Assembly (NCBI GenBank): GCA_001275005.1 | Contig: JWZX01003015.1 | Location: forward strand, 1 to 38,176 | DNA from: Chrysochromulina tobinii | Taxonomy: Eukaryota | DNA length: 38,176 nt | Direction of reading: 5' to 3' | Shown: piece after piece, positions 29,383 to 38,176 of the stretch | Numbering within the stretch: the first letter of the stretch is position 1 | How the letters are laid out: every line of letters starts with the position of its first letter | Notes under the pieces: model-generated | Seen by the model: only the letters and a program-made list of their open reading frames with translations | Told to the model about the DNA's origin: nothing | The model's database searches: none | Program-made: the position numbers and the translations under genes

Positions 29383-32300
29383 ATGGGCCAGGAGGTCAGC
29401 AAGCCGCCAGATGGCGCGAGTGGCGTCCCTGAAGCCGCGCTGAACGTGTCAGTGCCCACGGGAGAACCAGCTGCGAACAACCTGAGCCGCTCGCACAGTG
29501 CGCACATGCTTTCACACGCCGTGCCGCCCGCGGTGTGCGATGAACGGCACCGCCGAGCAAACACGTGGCAGCATCGCGGGCAGCAGCGCAGCGTGTACAC
29601 GCGTGCGCCGTGGCCGGCTCGTGGCGGCTCCTCGACGCCAGGCCCCTCGGACACTGAGTCGGAGGCGAGTGTCTCCGAGTCTGGCGGCCTCTCGCGCACG
29701 GGCTCATCGAATCGCGTGAAGCGCTCCATCTCCGAGGCATCTGACTGCTCGGAGCTCGGCGAGGATCCGCCGCGTGGCCCTGGTCAGGGCGACGGCCATC
29801 ATCGCAACTCGGGCACCTGGCCGCGGATGTCCAAGCGCTCAAGCAGCAGCTCGCAGCTGAGCCACGACCGGCTGGATGTGTGGGAACTCACGCGCGCGCT
29901 CGCGCGTGAGAAGTCGGACCTCGCCGACCTGCTCGCACGCATGACCTCCGAGGTTGAGGCGCGCGGCGAGGGCATCCCGGCGCCGCCCGCACTCAACCGA
30001 GGCAGCACGGACCACGGTACCGGTACGGCATGCGACCCGCAGCTGAGGCAGCTCGAGGCCCTCGTGGCCAAAGAACGGCAGCGCGCCGAAGTGGACGACG
30101 GCACGCTGAACTCCATCCTGGGCGCGCTCCAGGACCAATTCAAGCCCGAGGAGCCGCCCTCGGCCGCACCGACCGCCCTGCCGAAGCGGCGAGATTGCGA
30201 TCTGCCGAAGCGCGCACGTGCGCACCGCCACACGCAACCGACGCCGCACCCGCCGCCGCCGGCGGCGCTGTACGGTCCGCCGCACGCGCCGCATCCGCAC
30301 GCGCCGCCGCCGCTGACGCCGCATCCGCACGCGCCGCCGCCGCTGACGCCGCACGCGCCGTCTGCGCACCTCTACCACGCACAGTACCACGCACACCAAC
30401 AAGCTCCCCAGGATGCACCTCACCACGCGAGCTACCACTCGAGCTACCACGCGAGCTACCACGCGCCGCGCCCTCCGTACGAGTACGAAGATGTCGCATA
30501 CCGGTACACCGGCGTACCCGGTGCGCCCGCGATCGGACTACACGCGTCTCTGCCAGTCCGCGAGCGCGCTGGCGGCGACCCGACGTCGCGAATCACGCCG
30601 CCTCCAGCTCCCGGCGCTGTGCTGGGCGCCGTGCTTGGCGCCCACCACGGCGCCTGCTCTCACGCCGTGAGCGCGGGCTCGGCCGCGGCTGGCGCTGTGC
30701 TGGGCACCTCCTCACGTCCGAAAAGGATGCCTCCGGCAGTGCCGCTGCTTCCGGCGGCCGCGCTCGGCCCGCAGGCCTTTGGATGCTCGAGCTCGGACCA
30801 TCTCGGACCATCTCGGACCATCTCGGACCATCTCGGACCATCTCGGACGAGCTCGGATCATCTCGTTTCATCTCGGACGAGCTCGGACCATCTCGTTTCA
30901 TCTCGGACGAGCTCGGACCATCTCGTTTCGTCTCGGGCCTTCTCCGAGCTTCTCGGGGCCTTTGGACGCTCGTGCTCGGACGGGTTCGCCGACCAGCACG
31001 ACGCGTCCATGGGCGACGCCCAGCACGACGCGCTCATGGGCGCGGAGCAGAGCTCGGCTCTTCACCTCTCCGAGCAGCTCTGCATGTACGAAGGGCTCTT
31101 CGATGACGTCGACTTTTGCGGCGAAGTCGTGGCAGCGAGCGCCGGCGTCACCTCTCCCCGACTCACGTCGCTCGCGCTCGAAAAGGCGCAGCTCGGCCTC
31201 TCGCCAGTCCTCGAGGCGTCGCCGGGGGGTTGTCCGGGCGAGGGGCGCGAGTTGCTCCCGCCCGATGTGCTGCGCTTCCTCGAGAGACACAGAGAGCAGA
31301 CGCCGCTGCCGCCCTCCCCCCAGCCCGCCGCCACCCCGCCGTACCAGCGCTACCGACTCCCCGACCCACACGGTGCCCTTCAGCGGCCAACGTACCACAC
31401 GGCGGGCTCAGGAGGCGGTGGCCTTGAGTACCCACCTGGCGCGCCGTGGATGGCTGCCCACGACAGTCGAGTCGATGGCATAGAGATGTATCGCTCCACG
31501 ATGGTCACGGACGCTGGAGCCATCGCGTCCGACCCAGCCGACCCAGCCGACCCCGCCGGAGTCATTTGCGCACCGCGGACGTCGTTGGGCACGCCGATGC
31601 CGCCGGGAGTGCCGCGGAGTGGCTCTCCTGCGTGCTCCACTTGCAGCTCCGGCGCCGGCGCCGGCAGCAGCATGTCGAACTATCCCTCGGCGAGCGGCGC
31701 GATGCACCCCTCTGCGCGGTTGCTGGGTCAGTTGCTCGGTCACCACAGCGGCTCGTCCTGTGAACTGGGAGGCGGCAGCGTCGATGGCGAATGCGCGCTG
31801 GGTGGCGCCAAGCTCAAGAGGGAGAAGACGACGGATAAGGACGGGCCCTATCGCAAGGAGTGGACTATCGTCGAGGATGAGCTCATCGTCGAGAAGGTGC
31901 GCGAAATCGGGCCCAAGTGGCGCCAGATTGCGTCCGCACTGCAAACCGGCCGCTCGGACGATGCGGTGCGCAACCGTTATAACCGGCTCATGGAGCCCGG
32001 GGTCATCAGCAATTGGGCGCGCGAGAACGGCTCGCAATCGACCAAATCGTCCAAGTACAAGTGCTCCAAGTGCGGCCAGTTCAAGAAGAACCACCAGTGC
32101 ACGTACGTCAAGCCTGAGGCCGACGGATTCCCAGAGGAGGCGTGCCAGCTGGGCGAGGGCATCGGCGTGCATCCATGTGCGATCGGCGGCCTCGGCGGCT
32201 TAGGCGGACCTTATGGTGGCCACGGAAGCGGCGCCGGTGGCTGCGAGTGCGGCAGCAGCGGCTCGTCGAGCGCGGGCGCCCTCGTGGGCGCCCTCGCCCT

Positions 32301-32631
32301 CGGCGAGCAGGACAAGAAGGACATGACGCTGCGCGTGGGCTGGACCAAGGCGGAGGACGACATCATCATGAACTCCGTCGCCGAGCTCGGCAATAAATGG
32401 AACCTGATCACTCCGCGTCTCCCCGGCCGCACCGACCATGCCATCCGCAATCGGCATCATCGGCTGCTCACGATGCGTCAGAACCTCTTGCTCGCAGCGA
32501 GCTCGGCGTCGGCAGCGGCCACGGACGACGTCGACGATCTACTGGACTCGAGCGAGGGCCACTCGTCGCCCATCGGCGCCGAGGACGTGCTCGATGCCTT
32601 CATCGATCAGGTCGAGTTGGCGCAGCAGTGA
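29383..32631 (+). CDS. Myb-family transcription factor with two separated Myb/SANT repeats flanking a CxxC-H-C zinc knuckle
   Basis: RKEWTIVEDELI...GPKWRQIA...GRSDDAVRNRY (about 31852-31990); YKCSKCGQFKKNHQC (32056-32100); GWTKAEDDII...GNKW..I...LPGRTDHAIRNRH (about 32338-32466). The N-terminal ~800 aa are low complexity and the exon structure there is uncertain. Confidence 0.8.
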   Translation: MGQEVSKPPDGASGVPEAALNVSVPTGEPAANNLSRSHSAHMLSHAVPPAVCDERHRRANTWQHRGQQRSVYTRAPWPARGGSSTPGPSDTESEASVSESGGLSRTGSSNRVKRSISEASDCSELGEDPPRGPGQGDGHHRNSGTWPRMSKRSSSSSQLSHDRLDVWELTRALAREKSDLADLLARMTSEVEARGEGIPAPPALNRGSTDHGTGTACDPQLRQLEALVAKERQRAEVDDGTLNSILGALQDQFKPEEPPSAAPTALPKRRDCDLPKRARAHRHTQPTPHPPPPAALYGPPHAPHPHAPPPLTPHPHAPPPLTPHAPSAHLYHAQYHAHQQAPQDAPHHASYHSSYHASYHAPRPPYEYEDVAYRYTGVPGAPAIGLHASLPVRERAGGDPTSRITPPPAPGAVLGAVLGAHHGACSHAVSAGSAAAGAVLGTSSRPKRMPPAVPLLPAAALGPQAFGCSSSDHLGPSRTISDHLGPSRTSSDHLVSSRTSSDHLVSSRTSSDHLVSSRAFSELLGAFGRSCSDGFADQHDASMGDAQHDALMGAEQSSALHLSEQLCMYEGLFDDVDFCGEVVAASAGVTSPRLTSLALEKAQLGLSPVLEASPGGCPGEGRELLPPDVLRFLERHREQTPLPPSPQPAATPPYQRYRLPDPHGALQRPTYHTAGSGGGGLEYPPGAPWMAAHDSRVDGIEMYRSTMVTDAGAIASDPADPADPAGVICAPRTSLGTPMPPGVPRSGSPACSTCSSGAGAGSSMSNYPSASGAMHPSARLLGQLLGHHSGSSCELGGGSVDGECALGGAKLKREKTTDKDGPYRKEWTIVEDELIVEKVREIGPKWRQIASALQTGRSDDAVRNRYNRLMEPGVISNWARENGSQSTKSSKYKCSKCGQFKKNHQCTYVKPEADGFPEEACQLGEGIGVHPCAIGGLGGLGGPYGGHGSGAGGCECGSSGSSSAGALVGALALGEQDKKDMTLRVGWTKAEDDIIMNSVAELGNKWNLITPRLPGRTDHAIRNRHHRLLTMRQNLLLAASSASAAATDDVDDLLDSSEGHSSPIGAEDVLDAFIDQVELAQQ
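30791..30936. repeat. 10-bp minisatellite (TCTCGGACCA, about 14.5 units) evolving into a 30-bp higher-order repeat
   Basis: Five near-identical (t/g)ctcggacca units, then 3x [tctcggacga gctcgga(t/c)ca tctcgtttc(a/g)]. Confidence 0.92.
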
Positions 32632-33031
32632 GCTTGGCGAGCAGCCGCACGCAGGCTGCGCATCATGTTTTCTGGAGTCAGAGTTCCCCAGCGAAGAGCG
32701 TCGCATGTCACTGTCTCACTGAGATACAACCCCTGTTCAGCCTCAGAAAAATTTTAAGAGTCCCGATAAATAGGCAGATGGAGAGCTGCGCTCTGCTCAT
32801 GGCATTCCCATTGATGTTATGAGAGTTCATATGAGTGCACACTAGCTGCACTAAGTTGCACTAAAGCTCACGCTTGTACGGTTCCGGCCGGTGGGGTAAA
32901 GGGGTAGATTTCTCATGCCTCACCGGTGTCTTTTCGACGTACAAGTACCGTTTCGAAAAACACCGGGGGGAGACACGAGACAGCCACTCGAACCTCAAAA
33001 ACCACCTCAACCTCGGTCTCCCGTTGTGCTT

Positions 33032-33210
33032 GAACTGAACCGTAAGTTTCGTTCATGAAAGGTACTATACTGAACGGTAAGTTAGGTCCGGAGTAATCGA
33101 CTTGTTACGGAGTGTGTGCGCGCGTTGTGTTGAACAGCAAAGCACGGTAAGTCCTTGGGGGTCCGGAGGTTGTGCGCGGTGTGTTTCACAGCAGCAGCAC
33201 GGTAAGTCCG
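33032..33210 (+). repeat. Degenerate tandem units each ending in GTAAGT
   Basis: GTAAGT at 33042, 33077, 33147 and 33202. The last two units share ggtccggag...tgtgcgcg...tgtgtt..acagca..gcacggtaagtcc. Confidence 0.65.
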
Positions 33211-33319
33211 CGGTGCGAGAGGAGCCTTGTGACGAGAGTACACGACACGTCGAACGCCGCGCATCGGACCGACCACCAGAGCTCTCTTCTCCTTCCCCAA
33301 GAGCCGGCCCTTCGAAACA

Positions 33320-36300
33320 ATGCGAGGCAAGGGCCTGTTCCTGTTTGCGATGCTCGTCGCCTTGGGCAATTTGAGGTTCGCGAGCACGCCGCGCTGCCGC
33401 TCGCTCCCTGCCTTCTACAGCATGACCATCGTGGGCGCCGGCGGCCTCTCGACGCGCGTGGGCAACGCGATGATGCGCCTGCGCGAGGGCACGGGCCGCA
33501 AGTTCGGCAACATGATCCTCACCAACATCTCGACGCACCCCGGCATCCGCATCGAAACTTGCACTCAAAGCAGCACCGATACCCCGTCCGCGCTCCCGAC
33601 GATGTCGCTCAACACGTACCTGTTCTTCACGTCGAAGAACATCATCGAGAGCCCCACCGCCGGCTTCAGTATTATGTCGCCAAGAACTGACACGGTGCCT
33701 AGCATCTGCTCGAATGAATGTTTCTACACCTCCAACGCTGCTCGCGACAATGGCGCCCCCGGCTGCGAGTGTGATCTTCATCGCGCCCTCTTCATATTTG
33801 ACGCCTTCTCCACCGCGCCTACGTTTGCGACGCGCGCCTCGTCGGACCAGGTGGAATGCAAGCTCAATGTGTTCGCGGAGCACACTTCCGCCTCGCCGCC
33901 GAGCCCGGAGCTGGATGCGTTGAACCCTTACATGTCGCCGGAGCCGAAGCTCATGGCGACGGAGCCCGACTCGCCCTACATGCCCTACAACCCTGCCGTG
34001 ATGAGGCGTCACCAGGGCAACTTCTCGCTCGCCCACACGGAAAAGCGCTCGTACTGGTACCGCGAGCTTGACAACGGCATGAAGAAGCTCTTTGGCTCCA
34101 ACCTGAGCGCCACCACGAACACGAGCTTCTCCGCCTCAGTCAAGGTACCGACGGGCAGCTACTCGGAGCTGAAGGAGTACCCGGCGATCGCGCAGGACAT
34201 GCTCTTCCCCTCAGATGCCACGTGTCCCAAGGAGGACGAGTGCGAGACCTTCCTCACCTCGGTGGGCGGCGGCTCGAACGCCTTCGTGGACAAGATCCAC
34301 AAGGACTTCTTCTTCGAGATGGTCAGCAGCAATGTTGTGCCGGTGCTCGAGCGGCTTGTGGCCTTCTTCATCGCGCCCACGTTTGTGACGCGCGCCTCCT
34401 CTCTGGACCAGATCAACCGCGAGTTCAACAAGTTTGGGAAGCACCTGACAAACGCCACCGCCTTGTCGAACACCTCTATCTTGTTGAGCCCGGAAATCTT
34501 GGATGTGATGAACCCCGACGTGTCGCCAGAGCCGAACCTTGTGGCGACGAAGCCCAACTCGCAGGGCCCGGTGAGTGAGCGCTTGTGCGAGCACATGCTC
34601 TTCCCCTCAAATGCCAAGTGTCCCAAGGAGGACGAGTACGAGACCTTCCTCACCTCGGTGGGCGGCGGCTCGAACGCCTTCATGGACAAGATCCACAAGG
34701 ACTTCTTCTTCAGGGTGGTCAGTAGCAAAGTTGTGCCGGTGCTCGAGCGGCTTGTGGCCTTCTTCATCGCGCCCACGTTTGTGACGCGCGCCTCCTCTTT
34801 GGACCCGGTCAACCGCGAGCGCAACGTGTTGGCAGAGCCAGTGGCGAACACCCCCGCCTCGCAGAGCCCTGATGCGATGGCGGTGGGTACGAAACTGACT
34901 TGCAATCTCAACGACTTGCCTTCTGCTGGCCGTGAGATACTCCATGCGGCCGCGCCGCTGGCAAGCCGTGACCGCCTCGTGGCGCACATCATCGAGCATA
35001 GTCCACTATGTGGCACCGACGGCTCGCGCCCGAACACGGCATCGGCCCCGTTCCTGTCCACCGCGGTCGGCGGCACTGGCCTCTACCGCAACTCGGCTGG
35101 CGAGTCCACCGTCGATTCGTGCGCCATCTGCTGCTACGCTGCGTGCACTCGCGCCGAGCGTAACTCGATGACGGCCGAATACGGGCTGCGCAAGGGCGGG
35201 GTCTTCACGATAGCACTCGAGGAGCTCTTCATTACGAGCACAATCTGGGACGCGGACGTCAAGTACTCGTTCCCGTACGACCAGACGAACGCGAGCGAGG
35301 ATACTGCGGGGGATCCCATCAAGGCAGCGGCGGACTTGGACGGTGTGCCTTGGGAGTTGGTGGAGTGCTTCGACCTCGCATTCGTATTGCTCAGGCTTGC
35401 GTCGTTTGTTTGGGCGATTTGCGCGTCGCGGAGACGATCCGGTCCAAACGGGCGCTTTGCGAATCAGACGCACCGTAACCAGCGCTTTGCATTGGCCTTG
35501 CTCGTTTTCGTCGTCGTCCCGCGGTCAAGTGCCATGGCGACGACGGCACCACCCAATGGCGATGGGACTGGTGCGCATCGTGCAGAGTCGGCGCTGATGC
35601 CGCCATCGCGGCCGCCTCCGCCCACTCCATGCGCCGATGATGTGAACAGCGGCGCCTTGGACTTAAGCGGCGCCTCCATGCCGTGCTCCTACTTCTTAGC
35701 ACAGCCCTCTGTTTGCGCTTCCTATTCCATTGCACGCACCACTTGCCCGGTCGCGTGCGGGACGTGTCCGCCTCCCCTGCCTGACCCCTCTGGCATGACA
35801 TTCATGGCCAACGCCGAAACCAGTGACCACCCTGTTGCCGGGATGCACGCAGTCCAGCATGCGCCCAGCCATCGTCGTGCGCAGCAGGCCCAGGCCGGCG
35901 TCGTCCCCAGCCTGACCAGCACATCCAGCACCTCTGCAGGCAGCAGCCTCGTGACAGCCCCTTCGTTCCCGCAAACTCCTTTGCCGCCCTCATCCGCGTC
36001 GCGGACCCCACGGTCACGGCCTCCGCCCTTGCCACCCTGGCCGCCCTCGCCTCCCCGACTGATGCCCCCACCCACGCCGTCCCTGTACCCTCTGGACTCT
36101 GGGCCGACGCCACCTCAATCCTCGTCGCCGTACCTGCCCATTCCACAACCGTCGCCGTACCTGCCCATTCCACAACCGTCGCCGTACCTGCCCATTCCAC
36201 AACCGTCGATTCCACCCGTTTGGAGGTCTCCGCAGACACCCCTAATGCCCAACCACCGCCGTGAGCTGCAGACTGCGGTGAGCACCAGCGCGGGCCTGAC

Positions 36301-38176
36301 CAGTGCACTCGCCAACACAGCCGTCGGCCGCATTGTCCTTGCCCCCGGCACCTACTTCCTCAACGCCGAGCTCACCGTCACCAGGAGCGTTGTCATCGAG
36401 GCGGAGGTGGCAGGCTCGGTCGTGCTGGATGCACAAGCAAGCTCCTCGAGTCGGCGCCGTGTGCTGTACATCAACCCGGGCTCGTTGGGCGTCGTGCAAC
36501 TGATCGGGCTCAACATCACCAGGGGGTACGTACAGGGGGTACGTGGCTGCCGCAGAGACCTGTATATTCCCCATTGCCCTAATGGGATGCCTTGCTGACA
36601 CGCCCCATTCGACTCCCGTCGTTGATGATGGGTGCTGCCTCAATCTACCAGTTGGACGTACGTGCCATATGCGCCTGAAACTCTCATAGTTCCCATCGCC
36701 CTCATGGGAGACTCAAGTTTTGCTCGTTGTTTGCAGGGTGGGGGTGTCAATGTCCAGGGTGGCACAGTGGCCATCTCATCGTGCGCCATCAGTGGGAACA
36801 CAGCTGTTTCAAATGTGCGCGCTCTTATTCAAGAGTTCCCATCGCCCCTATGGGAAAATTCCTGACAAGCTTGCCTTGCCTCGACTCACTTTTGCACAAC
36901 TGCGGCCGACGCTCCGGGCAACTATAGGATCATGTACCTGCTGCAGGAGACCTTGAACATTTCCCATCGCCCCCATAGGAGACTCCACGTTTTGCTTGTT
37001 GTTTGCAGGGAGGCGGTGTCTACGTCGGTTCCGGCACGGTCACGATAACGTCTTCCTCGATCTACGGGAATTCAGCTCCCTATGTGCGTGCTCATGTTCA
37101 AAAGTTCCCATCATCCCGATGTGAAAATCGCGGACGTGCTTGCCTTGACTCTCGCTTGTACCGCTCGATGTTTGCAGGGCGGCGGTGTCTACGTTTATTC
37201 CGGCACGGTCACGATAACGTCTTCCTCGATCTACGGGAATACAGCAGACTATGTGCGTGCTCATGTTCAAAAGTTCCCATCATCCCGATGTGAAAGTTGC
37301 TGACGTTCTTGCCTTGACTCTCGCTTGTACCGCTCGATGTTTGCAGGGCGGCGGTGTCTACGTCTCTTACGGCACGGTCACGATAACGTCTTCCTCGATC
37401 TACGGGAATAGAGCTGGCTATGTGCGTGCTCATGTTCAAAAGTTCCCATCCCCCCGATGGGAAGATGCCCCATCCCCATGGGAGACTCACGTGTTGCTTG
37501 TTGTTTGCAGGGTGGTGGTGTCTATGTCAGTTCTTATTCAGGCACAGTCACGATAACGTCTTCCTCGATCAGTGGGAATAGAGCTCAAAATGTGCGCGCT
37601 CATGTTCAGAAGTTCGAATTTTCCCATGACCCTGATGGGGAAATGGCTGACATTTCTTACCTCGATCCTCGTTTGCACAATTGCGGCCGATGCTCTGGTC
37701 AACTACAGCAAGATGTACGTGCCTCAGAGTAGATTTCCTCCGCACATGGGAGACTCACGTTTGCTCGTTGTTTACAGGGCGGCGGTGTCTTTGTCGAGCG
37801 TGGCACGGTGACCTTCTCATCGTGCACCATCAGTGAGAACACAGCTAGCAATGTGCGCGCTCACGCTCATAAGTTCCCATCGCCTTTAGACTCACCTTTT
37901 GCTGGTTGTTTGCCCAGGGCGGCGGTGTCGCCGTCAATGCCGGCACAGTGGCCATCTCATCGAGCAACATCAGTGGGAACACAGCTTCAAATGTGCGCGC
38001 TCATGTTCAAAAGTTCCCGTACCCTAATGGGATGCCTTGCTTTTGTGTCCTCCTTTGTGACCACGCGTCCCCTATTCTCCACCCAGGGGCCCAATGTCTG
38101 TGTCTTTGGAGGCACCGTCTGCTCCTGGCCAATGACCCTCACCGACGTCTATGGCACAGTCTCAACCTGCCCAGCA
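33320..38176 (+). CDS. Large mosaic secreted/surface protein with a right-handed beta-helix (pectin-lyase-like/Pmp-type GG..N repeats) encoded by tandem exons; 3' end outside the window
   Basis: Exon 1 is 33320-36538 (signal-like start, M16 relics, Cys module, Pro-rich stalk, RRELQ, beta-helix cap LTSAL...IVLAPGTY...LTVTRSVVI...VLDA...RRVLYI...GLNITRG). Phase-0 GT-AG exons follow at 36737-36814, 37009-37083, 37178-37252, 37347-37421, 37511-37591, 37778-37852, 37918-37992 and 38087->38176. All splice in frame with no stops. The true start is uncertain. Confidence 0.78.
34197..34820 (+). repeat. About 225-bp direct duplication (period 396 bp) of a peptidase M16-like segment
   Basis: acatgctcttcccctca.atgcca.gtgtcccaaggaggacgagt.cgagaccttcctcacctcggtgggcggcggctcgaacgcc... 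at 34197 and 34593. A diverged partial third copy (APTFATRASS...SPEPKLMATEPDS) lies at about 33803-33973. Confidence 0.92.
36123..36208 (+). repeat. Perfect 27-bp coding repeat x3 (SPYLPIPQP) in the Pro-rich stalk
   Basis: cgtcgccgtacctgcccattccacaac repeated three times. Confidence 0.92.
36539..38086 (+). repeat. Tandem array of homologous exon+intron cassettes (7 repeat exons, 8 related introns)
   Basis: Exons of 78, 75, 75, 75, 81, 75 and 75 nt each begin GGN GGN GGT GTC. Introns (198, 194, 94, 94, 89, 186, 65, 94 nt) mostly begin GTGCG(C/T)GCTCATGTTCA(A/G)AAGTTC and end TGTTTGCAG. A 169-bp period is seen across 37009-37450. Confidence 0.93.

Follow-up and report, generated by a model that had tools for sequence, protein, structure and literature searches.

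The last few kilobases of the window, a 38,176-nt stretch of Chrysochromulina tobinii DNA (contig JWZX01003015.1), encode a predicted beta-helix with one repeat per exon, which raises the question of whether these exons are interchangeable cassettes of a diversified recognition protein, as a sequence-only reading had proposed, and by which route such diversity would arise. We consider it probable that they form part of a two-tier, frame-preserving cassette system under diversifying selection, in which the variable face likely recognizes foreign surface molecules and the repertoire is inherited.

Structure of the gene at the end of the window

The window ends in the 3' half of one gene from a large Chrysochromulina family. 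The features of this gene are as follows.

33320..36538, plus strand: long first coding exon (open frame; RNA contigs match parts of it with 0 differences; hydropathy scan)
34583..34795, plus strand: the better of two partial peptidase M16 fragments (Pfam PF00675, profile 36-105 of 149, in 2 stretches)
36257..36538, plus strand: beta-helix N-terminal cap and first coils (269 relatives; helix plus strands in the twin-domain model)
36539..38086, plus strand: eleven homologous GT-AG introns, 113-117 nt before micro-exons and 63-94 nt before other exons
36652..36657, plus strand: 6-nt micro-exon, Leu-Asp (an RNA contig joint in X1 carries TTGGAC; AG/GT flanks; common to close paralogs)
36737..36814, plus strand: repeat exon 1, 78 nt (acceptor joint in RNA)
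36928..36933, plus strand: predicted 6-nt micro-exon, Asp-His (motif match only; no bridging contig among those of five RNA runs)
37009..37083, plus strand: repeat exon 2, 75 nt (GT..AG, phase 0)
37178..37252, plus strand: repeat exon 3, 75 nt (included in gene model P0005)
37347..37421, plus strand: repeat exon 4, 75 nt (joint 37421>37511 in RNA)
37511..37591, plus strand: repeat exon 5, 81 nt (RNA joints on both sides)
37709..37714, plus strand: 6-nt micro-exon, Gln-Asp (RNA joint 37591>37778 with CAAGAT between; also in P0005)
37778..37852, plus strand: repeat exon 6, 75 nt (RNA joint 37852>37918 in X1 and X2)
37918..37992, plus strand: repeat exon 7, 75 nt (RNA joint 37992>38087 in X1)
38087..38176, plus strand: C-cap exon, cut by the contig end (in loci L018 and L070 it runs on into a Pro/Ser stalk)

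The seven repeat exons and the cap agree in position and translation with the sequence-only reading; all are multiples of 3 in phase 0 and bounded by GT and AG. The 39-nt core that it described in the three middle exons is indeed identical, and these exons differ only at positions 3, 18-20, 23, 64-65 and 69-71. The introns number 11 and not eight, because the supposed introns of 198, 194 and 186 nt each consist of two introns around a 6-nt micro-exon; the rows of micro-exons, the most unusual feature of the family, had been missed. The two adjacent 94-nt introns differ at 4 of 94 sites and the exons at 37178 and 37347 at 6 of 75 (four non-synonymous), as reported, but this contrast alone is not significant (Fisher p=0.34). 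Spliced with its three micro-exons, the gene is open for 1287 codons across the 11 introns. Most of these introns carry an imperfect palindrome ~21 nt after the donor, and a 10-nt intron motif has seven occurrences within the array and a single one in the rest of the window (1.5 expected).

Upstream of the array, the leader is a patchwork of decayed fragments: the first exon has a signal-peptide-like start, decayed gene fragments, two hydrophobic segments, a Cys-rich motif, a Pro-rich linker and the beta-helix N-cap. The gene model of this locus, P0005 (C. tobinii), is named insulin-degrading enzyme. A complete M16 peptidase domain has the motif HxxEH; P0005 contains two partial stretches of the domain and, in translation, the motif without its first His, and was rejected as a peptidase. 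The misleading name is explained by the partial M16 fragments in the leader.

L018 and L070 both equal the end of the window exactly and then diverge, and the window stops before that choice. In neither candidate C-terminus (L018/L069, closed; L070, open) does an anchoring membrane helix follow the array. L070 is 98.7% identical to the window over 30987-37615 and has five middle units of 169 nt versus three in the window, and RNA contigs hold the junctions of its two extra cassettes. The three-unit middle of the window may therefore be an assembly collapse across a 162-nt identical run.

A multigene family in Chrysochromulina

A search with the N-cap (36257-36538) yielded 269 related proteins among 1628 candidates, and among the 120 matches listed, all nine with an organism name are from Chrysochromulina. 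An exact exon-intron pattern retrieved 119 metagenome loci (full flanks for 80), which together with the window form 50 gene clusters at 93% over 350 nt; this family size rests on one exact pattern and is a lower bound. The expectation of a multigene family was thus borne out. The 50 clusters contain 516 cassette calls and 240 distinct repeat exons, 156 of them 75 nt in length. All but four of the 240 are multiples of 3, the four being donor miscalls by inspection, and open frames are kept in all but the miscalled exons. Because the alga is suggested to be haploid in the available text of PMC4580454, distinct versions of a gene are probably paralogs. Short-read assemblies can make chimeras between paralogs, and L043 looks like one.

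Rows of predicted single-codon exons

When a strict motif was applied to 180 distinct segments between repeat exons, 120 micro-exons were identified: 93 of 3 nt, 19 of 6 nt, four of 9 nt and one each of 8, 15, 21 and 24 nt. The same motif gave 5 matches in 524 kb of reverse strand versus 120 in 36.7 kb. All micro-exons but one (119/120) are multiples of 3, as are 26 of the 27 whose length is other than 3 (p=7e-12), and stop codons are absent from the 93 single-codon micro-exons (0 versus 7.9 expected). Altogether 28 different codons are used, which specify 16 amino acids, with Gly, Tyr, Ser, Asn and Asp predominating. A weight matrix trained on the strict calls, and hence not independent of them, placed 122 of 122 in frame. 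After de-duplication, 118 micro-exons remained in 31 of the 50 clusters, where they form tandem rows of up to about seven. Loci with rows of 3-nt exons include L027, L028, L036 and L054. Most micro-exons are apparently single codons, and six-base ones are seen spliced in RNA, as described in the next section.

Counted by hairpin-to-hairpin units, 110 of 177 match the strict motif, 48 more match a relaxed pattern (45 in frame) and 19 have no match; at least 158 of the 177 have intact and uniform splice signals. Three 8-nt calls of the relaxed pattern look like pieces of diverged repeat exons.

The introns fall into two classes according to the exon that follows. Those before micro-exons have a median length of 108.5 nt and an AG-free zone with a median of 80 nt, and in 63 of 92 of them YTRAC lies 55-59 nt from the end; those before repeat exons have a median length of 71 nt, CTCAC at 20-24 nt in 94 of 142 and an AG-free zone with a median of 24 nt, the branch sites in both being motif predictions. 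Overall, family introns measure 63-140 nt, and the micro-exon units are near-clonal repeats of ~115 nt. From these signals we infer that 3-nt exons are also spliced in, helped by a dedicated intron class.

L070 runs on into a second, intronless beta-helix domain, and loops of 4-24 residues occur in intronless or spliced arrays. Only 1 of 21 loop codons in intronless arrays ends in C, versus 916 of 2255 codons in four ORFs of the window (p=4e-4, from four loci only). Loop codons of intronless arrays thus avoid third-position C like micro-exons, as is expected for reverse-transcribed copies.

Splicing in RNA

The RNA data consisted of five of 14 RNA runs, used as assembled contigs, which drop rare isoforms, and one run of unknown kind. 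Contigs from X8 cover intron 1, indicating that DNA or unspliced RNA is also present. At 90% identity, contigs from X1 show the joints 37421>37511, 37591>37778, 37852>37918 and 37992>38087 on the window, and the joint 37852>37918 was also found in X2. One 341-nt contig spans four exon pieces (98% identity on L070). Splicing at several of the proposed junctions is therefore shown by RNA; the contigs of the five runs contain neither 37083>37178 nor 37252>37347. Two joints carry six extra letters, TTGGAC and CAAGAT, which correspond to AG-flanked, GT-followed hexamers inside long introns, and an X2 contig carries CATGAT, the matching hexamer of the paralog L004. All three micro-exon junctions seen include their 6-nt micro-exon. 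As for 3-nt exons, four RNA junction motifs had no matching genomic pair, and a comparison of RNA loose ends or 177 proteins with the genomic micro-exon rows gave no 3-nt case.

Diversification by splicing, which the sequence-only reading had considered, found no support in the five runs: no skip joint was detected at 98% identity in these contigs, in which rare forms are dropped. The joint 37083>37347, seen at 90% identity, was rejected as exon skipping, being a normal junction of the longer L070 array.

Variable codons and selection

The repeat exons belong to three recurrent core types (cassette classes), and most genes contain them interleaved. In a set of 153 distinct 25-residue repeats, 17-18 amino acids occur at positions 7, 24 and 25, and 14 at position 5; the hypervariable codons are 5, 7, 8, 22, 24 and 25. 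Codons next to the variable ones are nearly fixed even at silent sites (codon 3 is GGT in 154 of 156), and the outward positions 10-19 are conserved within a class.

Selection was examined with a purpose-built, fixed-tree codon model in the three classes. For the six variable codons, the pooled dS/dN values were 1.5/3.0, 2.0/4.5 and 1.5/3.0 (LR 15.6, 8.9 and 18.0), a dN/dS of about 2, compared with 0.2-0.35 for the framework and 0.67-0.94 for whole cassettes, in line with the proposed excess of amino acid changes at these codons. Single sites reached p<0.05 at codons 7, 22, 24 and 25 in class I, at codons 7 and 24 in class II and at none in class III; at codons 5 and 8 taken singly, dN about equals dS. 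The variable sites were picked from the same data set as tested, and they recur in each class. With true or 30%-scrambled trees, 0 of 40 neutral simulations matched the observed LRs, and fully scrambled trees gave 1, 4 and 0 false positives of 40.

A tree-free comparison was made on 14 collinear alignments from 13 chosen locus pairs. Positions 1-2 of variable codons differ at 17 of 228 sites (7.5%) and micro-exons at 6 of 71 (8.5%), versus 147 of 4758 (3.1%) in introns (p=0.0016 and p=0.024, respectively), the introns being no neutral baseline because framework third positions differ less (4/361). Framework positions 1-2 differ at 9 of 722 sites.

Cassette shuffling and probable inheritance of the repertoire

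The nearest relative of a cassette lies in another gene in 166 of 184 cases and in the same gene in 18 (2.4% under shuffled labels), so that duplication within a locus does take place but accounts for a small part only. Of 45 close cross-gene cassette pairs, only 6 have next cassettes that point to the same gene. Mixing of cassettes between genes, as the sequence-only reading had foreseen, is evident from these two counts. Three versions of this gene, those in the window, in L004 and in L020, have a common leader and common first and last cassettes, and differ in the middle.

Between assemblies, the arrays of 18 of the 25 multi-locus clusters are identical at the residues compared, giving no support to rearrangement within a culture; two of the other seven show copy-number differences of near-identical units, and the rest point or order differences. 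Orphan cassettes, which had also been envisaged, and inverted ones were found in 0 of 120 sequences.

Site-specific (integron-like) recombination at the intron palindrome was rejected, because 15 of 35 supported breakpoints lie in the palindrome versus 54% for homology-weighted random crossovers. Compensatory changes are absent from the palindrome stem, and the predicted folding of six introns did not surpass that of shuffled sequences (z -0.11 to 0.97). Since breakpoints are no commoner in the palindrome than homology predicts, ordinary recombination suffices. Diversity-generating retroelements act by adenine-specific mutagenesis; this source was also rejected, as the third position of codon 22 is A in 151 of 156 exons and codon 21 is AAY in 155 of 156. 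In three paralogs the shared sequence begins ~90 nt upstream of the start codon, and no terminal repeat of a mobile element is evident in their alignment. A viral origin was rejected as well (two patterns, 0 matches in viral contigs).

Stable arrays between assemblies, the lack of skipping in the RNA contigs and crossovers that are not hairpin-specific make the diversification look inherited rather than somatic. The repertoire is most likely inherited, varying between strains, and not made anew in each cell.

Predicted fold and associated domains

The domain that was folded is the intronless twin in L070 (L070:8525-9526; 33 sequences), not the spliced product of the window. The model has a pLDDT of 93.2 and a pTM of 0.91; an earlier single-sequence model (pLDDT 65.7) was superseded. 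The twin domain matches right-handed beta-helices, by Foldseek as well; it aligns with the AlgE4 A-module over 302 residues (Z 30.6, rmsd 2.5), and the best 50 VIA-align rows have Z of 22.7-30.6. Pfam PF13229 was matched at E 5.6e-16 (59 bits versus a cutoff of 25.9). Each coil has strands at residues 4-6, 10-14 and 17-19, and residues 22-25, the micro-exon residues and then residues 5, 7 and 8 are contiguous around one side of the coil, solvent exposure and face being deduced from strand alternation, without coordinates. As the sequence-only reading had supposed, the scaffold is thus predicted to be a right-handed parallel beta-helix with the variable codons on one predicted face. We take this side to be the usual ligand (glycan-binding) groove in related folds. 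Catalysis there is unlikely, judging from the absence of conserved polar residues.

Several members have a receptor-like layout, in keeping with the proposed role in recognition. Beyond the cap and stalk, a hydrophobic helix is followed by a kinase domain in L001 (E 3.5e-38) and by an ADP-ribosyltransferase (ART) domain in L040 (E 3.1e-19). L010 has a kinase-like tail by inspection. Kinase and ART tails occur in three gene clusters; ankyrin tails are present in a distant relative. L006, L007, L027 and L057 carry a helix with a tail, and no such helix follows in L018 and L069. C-type lectin or laminin-G-like domains occur in yet other members. In P0251 a TIR-like tail was suspected by eye and was not confirmed by Pfam.

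Proposed mechanism and alternative explanations

The predicted beta-helix is encoded by one-coil exons and by micro-exons of one to a few codons. In the mechanism that we propose, the 3-nt exons would be spliced in with the help of their dedicated introns, in which the branch-like motif lies 55-59 nt before the acceptor. The homologous introns would undergo ordinary unequal crossing-over and gene conversion, by which coils or single loop residues are added, dropped or swapped without frameshift, and selection would favour new residues on a face made up of the coil end, the micro-exon loop and the first strand of the next coil. Members with a membrane helix and a kinase or ADP-ribosyltransferase would signal after binding, those like the gene of the window are probably secreted or surface-tethered binders, and occasional reverse-transcribed copies would fix a spliced array as an intronless domain. 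The recognition role of the variable face is putative, as is its ligand. Neither an absence of splicing, nor an invariant single copy, nor scattered or buried variable sites with low dN/dS, nor purely local duplication was found.

It is also conceivable, if rather doubtful, that each gene yields many isoforms through regulated or stochastic skipping of repeat exons and micro-exons, with inherited shuffling secondary. Every cassette is frame-neutral and the micro-exon rows are long, and the available texts on brown-algal ROCO genes (PMC11378527) and schistosome micro-exon genes (PMC10526429) offer precedents. However, the three micro-exon junctions in RNA all include the micro-exon and the splice signals of most units are intact; the lack of a skip joint points in the same direction, weakly, given what the contigs drop. 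A bolder version, which we regard as unlikely, is that rows of single-codon exons, each exon with a specialized intron of its own, are both shuffled between genes by recombination and spliced in varying combinations, so that every cell would possess many different beta-helix receptors with antibody-like loops and kinase or ADP-ribosyltransferase outputs.

The variable face might instead be the target of recognition, if the family consists of abundant coat or adhesion proteins whose variation evades attachment by viruses, parasites or grazers. The same signature of selection would be expected, and in several members, the type in the window included, nothing more than a Pro/Ser stalk or a short tail follows, without a signalling domain. 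We nevertheless think this quite improbable, because the kinase, ART and ankyrin tails point to signalling and because variation is confined to one predicted face, the other outward positions being conserved within a class.

A recombination-prone repeat might also have expanded neutrally, without adaptive significance and with its exposed sites less constrained. This would fit the decayed leaders, the copy-number differences between assemblies and the dN/dS of whole cassettes below 1; it is very unlikely in view of the preserved open frames and of dN exceeding dS at specific codons with conserved third positions. Finally, it is very unlikely that the 3-nt exons are intronic spacers, varying among tandem copies of an intron and never entering mRNA, so that only the repeat exons and a few 6-nt exons count: no direct RNA junction was found for any 3-nt exon, but these exons show frame and stop-codon constraint with an intact AG and GT at each unit, change faster than the flanking intron, share the intron context of the spliced 6-nt exons and have counterparts in the micro-exon-like codons of intronless loops.

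Comparison with known systems

No description of this family or of single-codon exon rows was found in the open-access literature, nor was an open-access paper on micro-exons in haptophytes or Chrysochromulina; the available part of a 2026 preprint on protist immunity mentions neither Chrysochromulina nor exon arrays. How free-living algae recognize viruses, bacteria or prey is largely open, and the family provides concrete, fast-evolving candidate receptors in a cultured and sequenced haptophyte. One-codon exon rows are an extreme gene structure that annotation misses, as the filing of this gene under insulin-degrading enzyme illustrates, and a natural system for asking how the spliceosome handles 3-nt exons. 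Putative micro-exon loop residues would be an unusual way to vary a binding surface.

In agnathans, the variable lymphocyte receptors (VLRs) are modular repeat receptors that bear end caps and a stalk and are put together in somatic cells from flanking cassettes. The present family resembles them in its modular repeats, capped ends and stalk and shows no sign of somatic assembly: arrays are complete, inverted cassettes were found in 0 of 120 sequences and 18 of 25 clusters are identical between assemblies. The fold itself is common, being shared with right-handed parallel beta-helix proteins such as the AlgE4 epimerase, phage tailspikes and polysaccharide lyases, at 9-21% identity to solved structures.

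As in vertebrate neural microexons, according to the available text of PMC12871342, the distance from branch site to acceptor is longer before tiny exons; those are single conserved exons under SRRM4, whereas here the rows are tandem and hypervariable and the branch sites predicted. The micro-exon genes (MEGs) of Schistosoma, as far as the accessible text of PMC10526429 describes them, likewise have runs of very short, mostly 3n exons and encode secreted, fast-evolving proteins. In MEGs the entire protein is encoded by such exons, mostly of 15 nt and separated by introns of 0.1-5 kb, whereas those described here are mostly 3 nt, lie in ~115-nt units and form one loop; alternative splicing is established for MEGs and not here. 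Since the micro-exons here supply loop residues only and the introns are so short, the family does not belong to the MEGs.

Closer in their mode of diversification are the 90-bp-exon LRR arrays of Tetrahymena, for which the text available from PMC6564038 reports clonal exon-intron units, ectopic recombination within and between genes, kinase fusions and intron length classes. They differ in being LRRs in phase 2, in numbering thousands of genes and in their association with the REP retrotransposon, and micro-exons are not mentioned in that portion of the text. The LRR-ROCO and NB-ARC-TPR genes of Ectocarpus, in the available texts of PMC3341825 and PMC11378527, likewise encode each repeat in a single exon, of 72 nt in their case, and combine exon shuffling with positively selected residues on one face and an attached signalling domain; an immune role is proposed for them as it is here. 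Unlike those genes, the present family has a beta-helix in place of LRR/TPR, an extracellular layout in place of ROC-COR/NB-ARC and phase 0 in place of phase 2; Pfam gives beta-helix, kinase, ART and lectin domains. Inverted intronic cassettes were not found here, and a second layer, that of the micro-exons, is present. Combinatorial inclusion, if true, would be a new route to receptor diversity; if inherited shuffling alone is at work, the pattern of brown algae and ciliates would be extended to a new fold and lineage at single-residue resolution.

Structure of the leader and the upstream flank

The leaders of many family members are long open frames, as in the window (33320-35350) and in P0026, P0072, P0081 and P0088, four proteins related to its N-cap. 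These frames are pieced together from decayed fragments of housekeeping genes, namely peptidase M16 and acetyl-CoA carboxylase, and the patchwork is followed by two hydrophobic segments that are common to the members. Similarity of the window to its paralogs L004 and L020 begins ~90 nt 5' of the start codon (window 33233 onward), and the flanks farther upstream in the three loci are mostly unrelated. Upstream of the gene, at window 33040-33210, a short motif occurs four times, each copy ending in GGTAAG or CGTAAG, and is in part common to L004; these repeats are possibly promoter elements or splice donors of the 5' UTR.

The remainder of the window contains no further cassettes (38,176 nt in total), and the neighbouring genes are ordinary and intron-poor. 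Neighbour genes and short tandem repeats in the window are as follows:

287-32631: neighbour genes for dehydrogenases, a C2/ion channel, DnaJ, AMP deaminase, a 2OG oxygenase and a Myb protein
30788-30936: short tandem repeat, 10/30-nt units
36123-36208: short tandem repeat, 27-nt units

The copy number of the last repeat differs among the window and the related proteins P0004 and P0007.

Intronless arrays and micro-exon units

Beta-helix arrays without introns were found in four metagenome loci, L070 (8525-9526), L022, L013 and L033, and in L070 the array lies immediately 3' of a cassette array within the same gene. Their codon choices match those of the cassettes. The intronless arrays are likely to be reverse-transcribed copies.

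Two micro-exon units, located in the inter-cassette segments of L004 and L027, apparently use a GC donor rather than GT. In addition, one assembled RNA contig (X2 record 15, aligned to L070 6875-6925) carries an identical micro-exon on both sides of one repeat exon, suggesting either a collapsed tandem copy in L004 or a circular RNA.

Distant relatives

Two layouts occur in the distant relatives P0251 and P0267: the beta-helix is joined either to a Cys-rich region that has several membrane helices or to ankyrin repeats together with one membrane helix.
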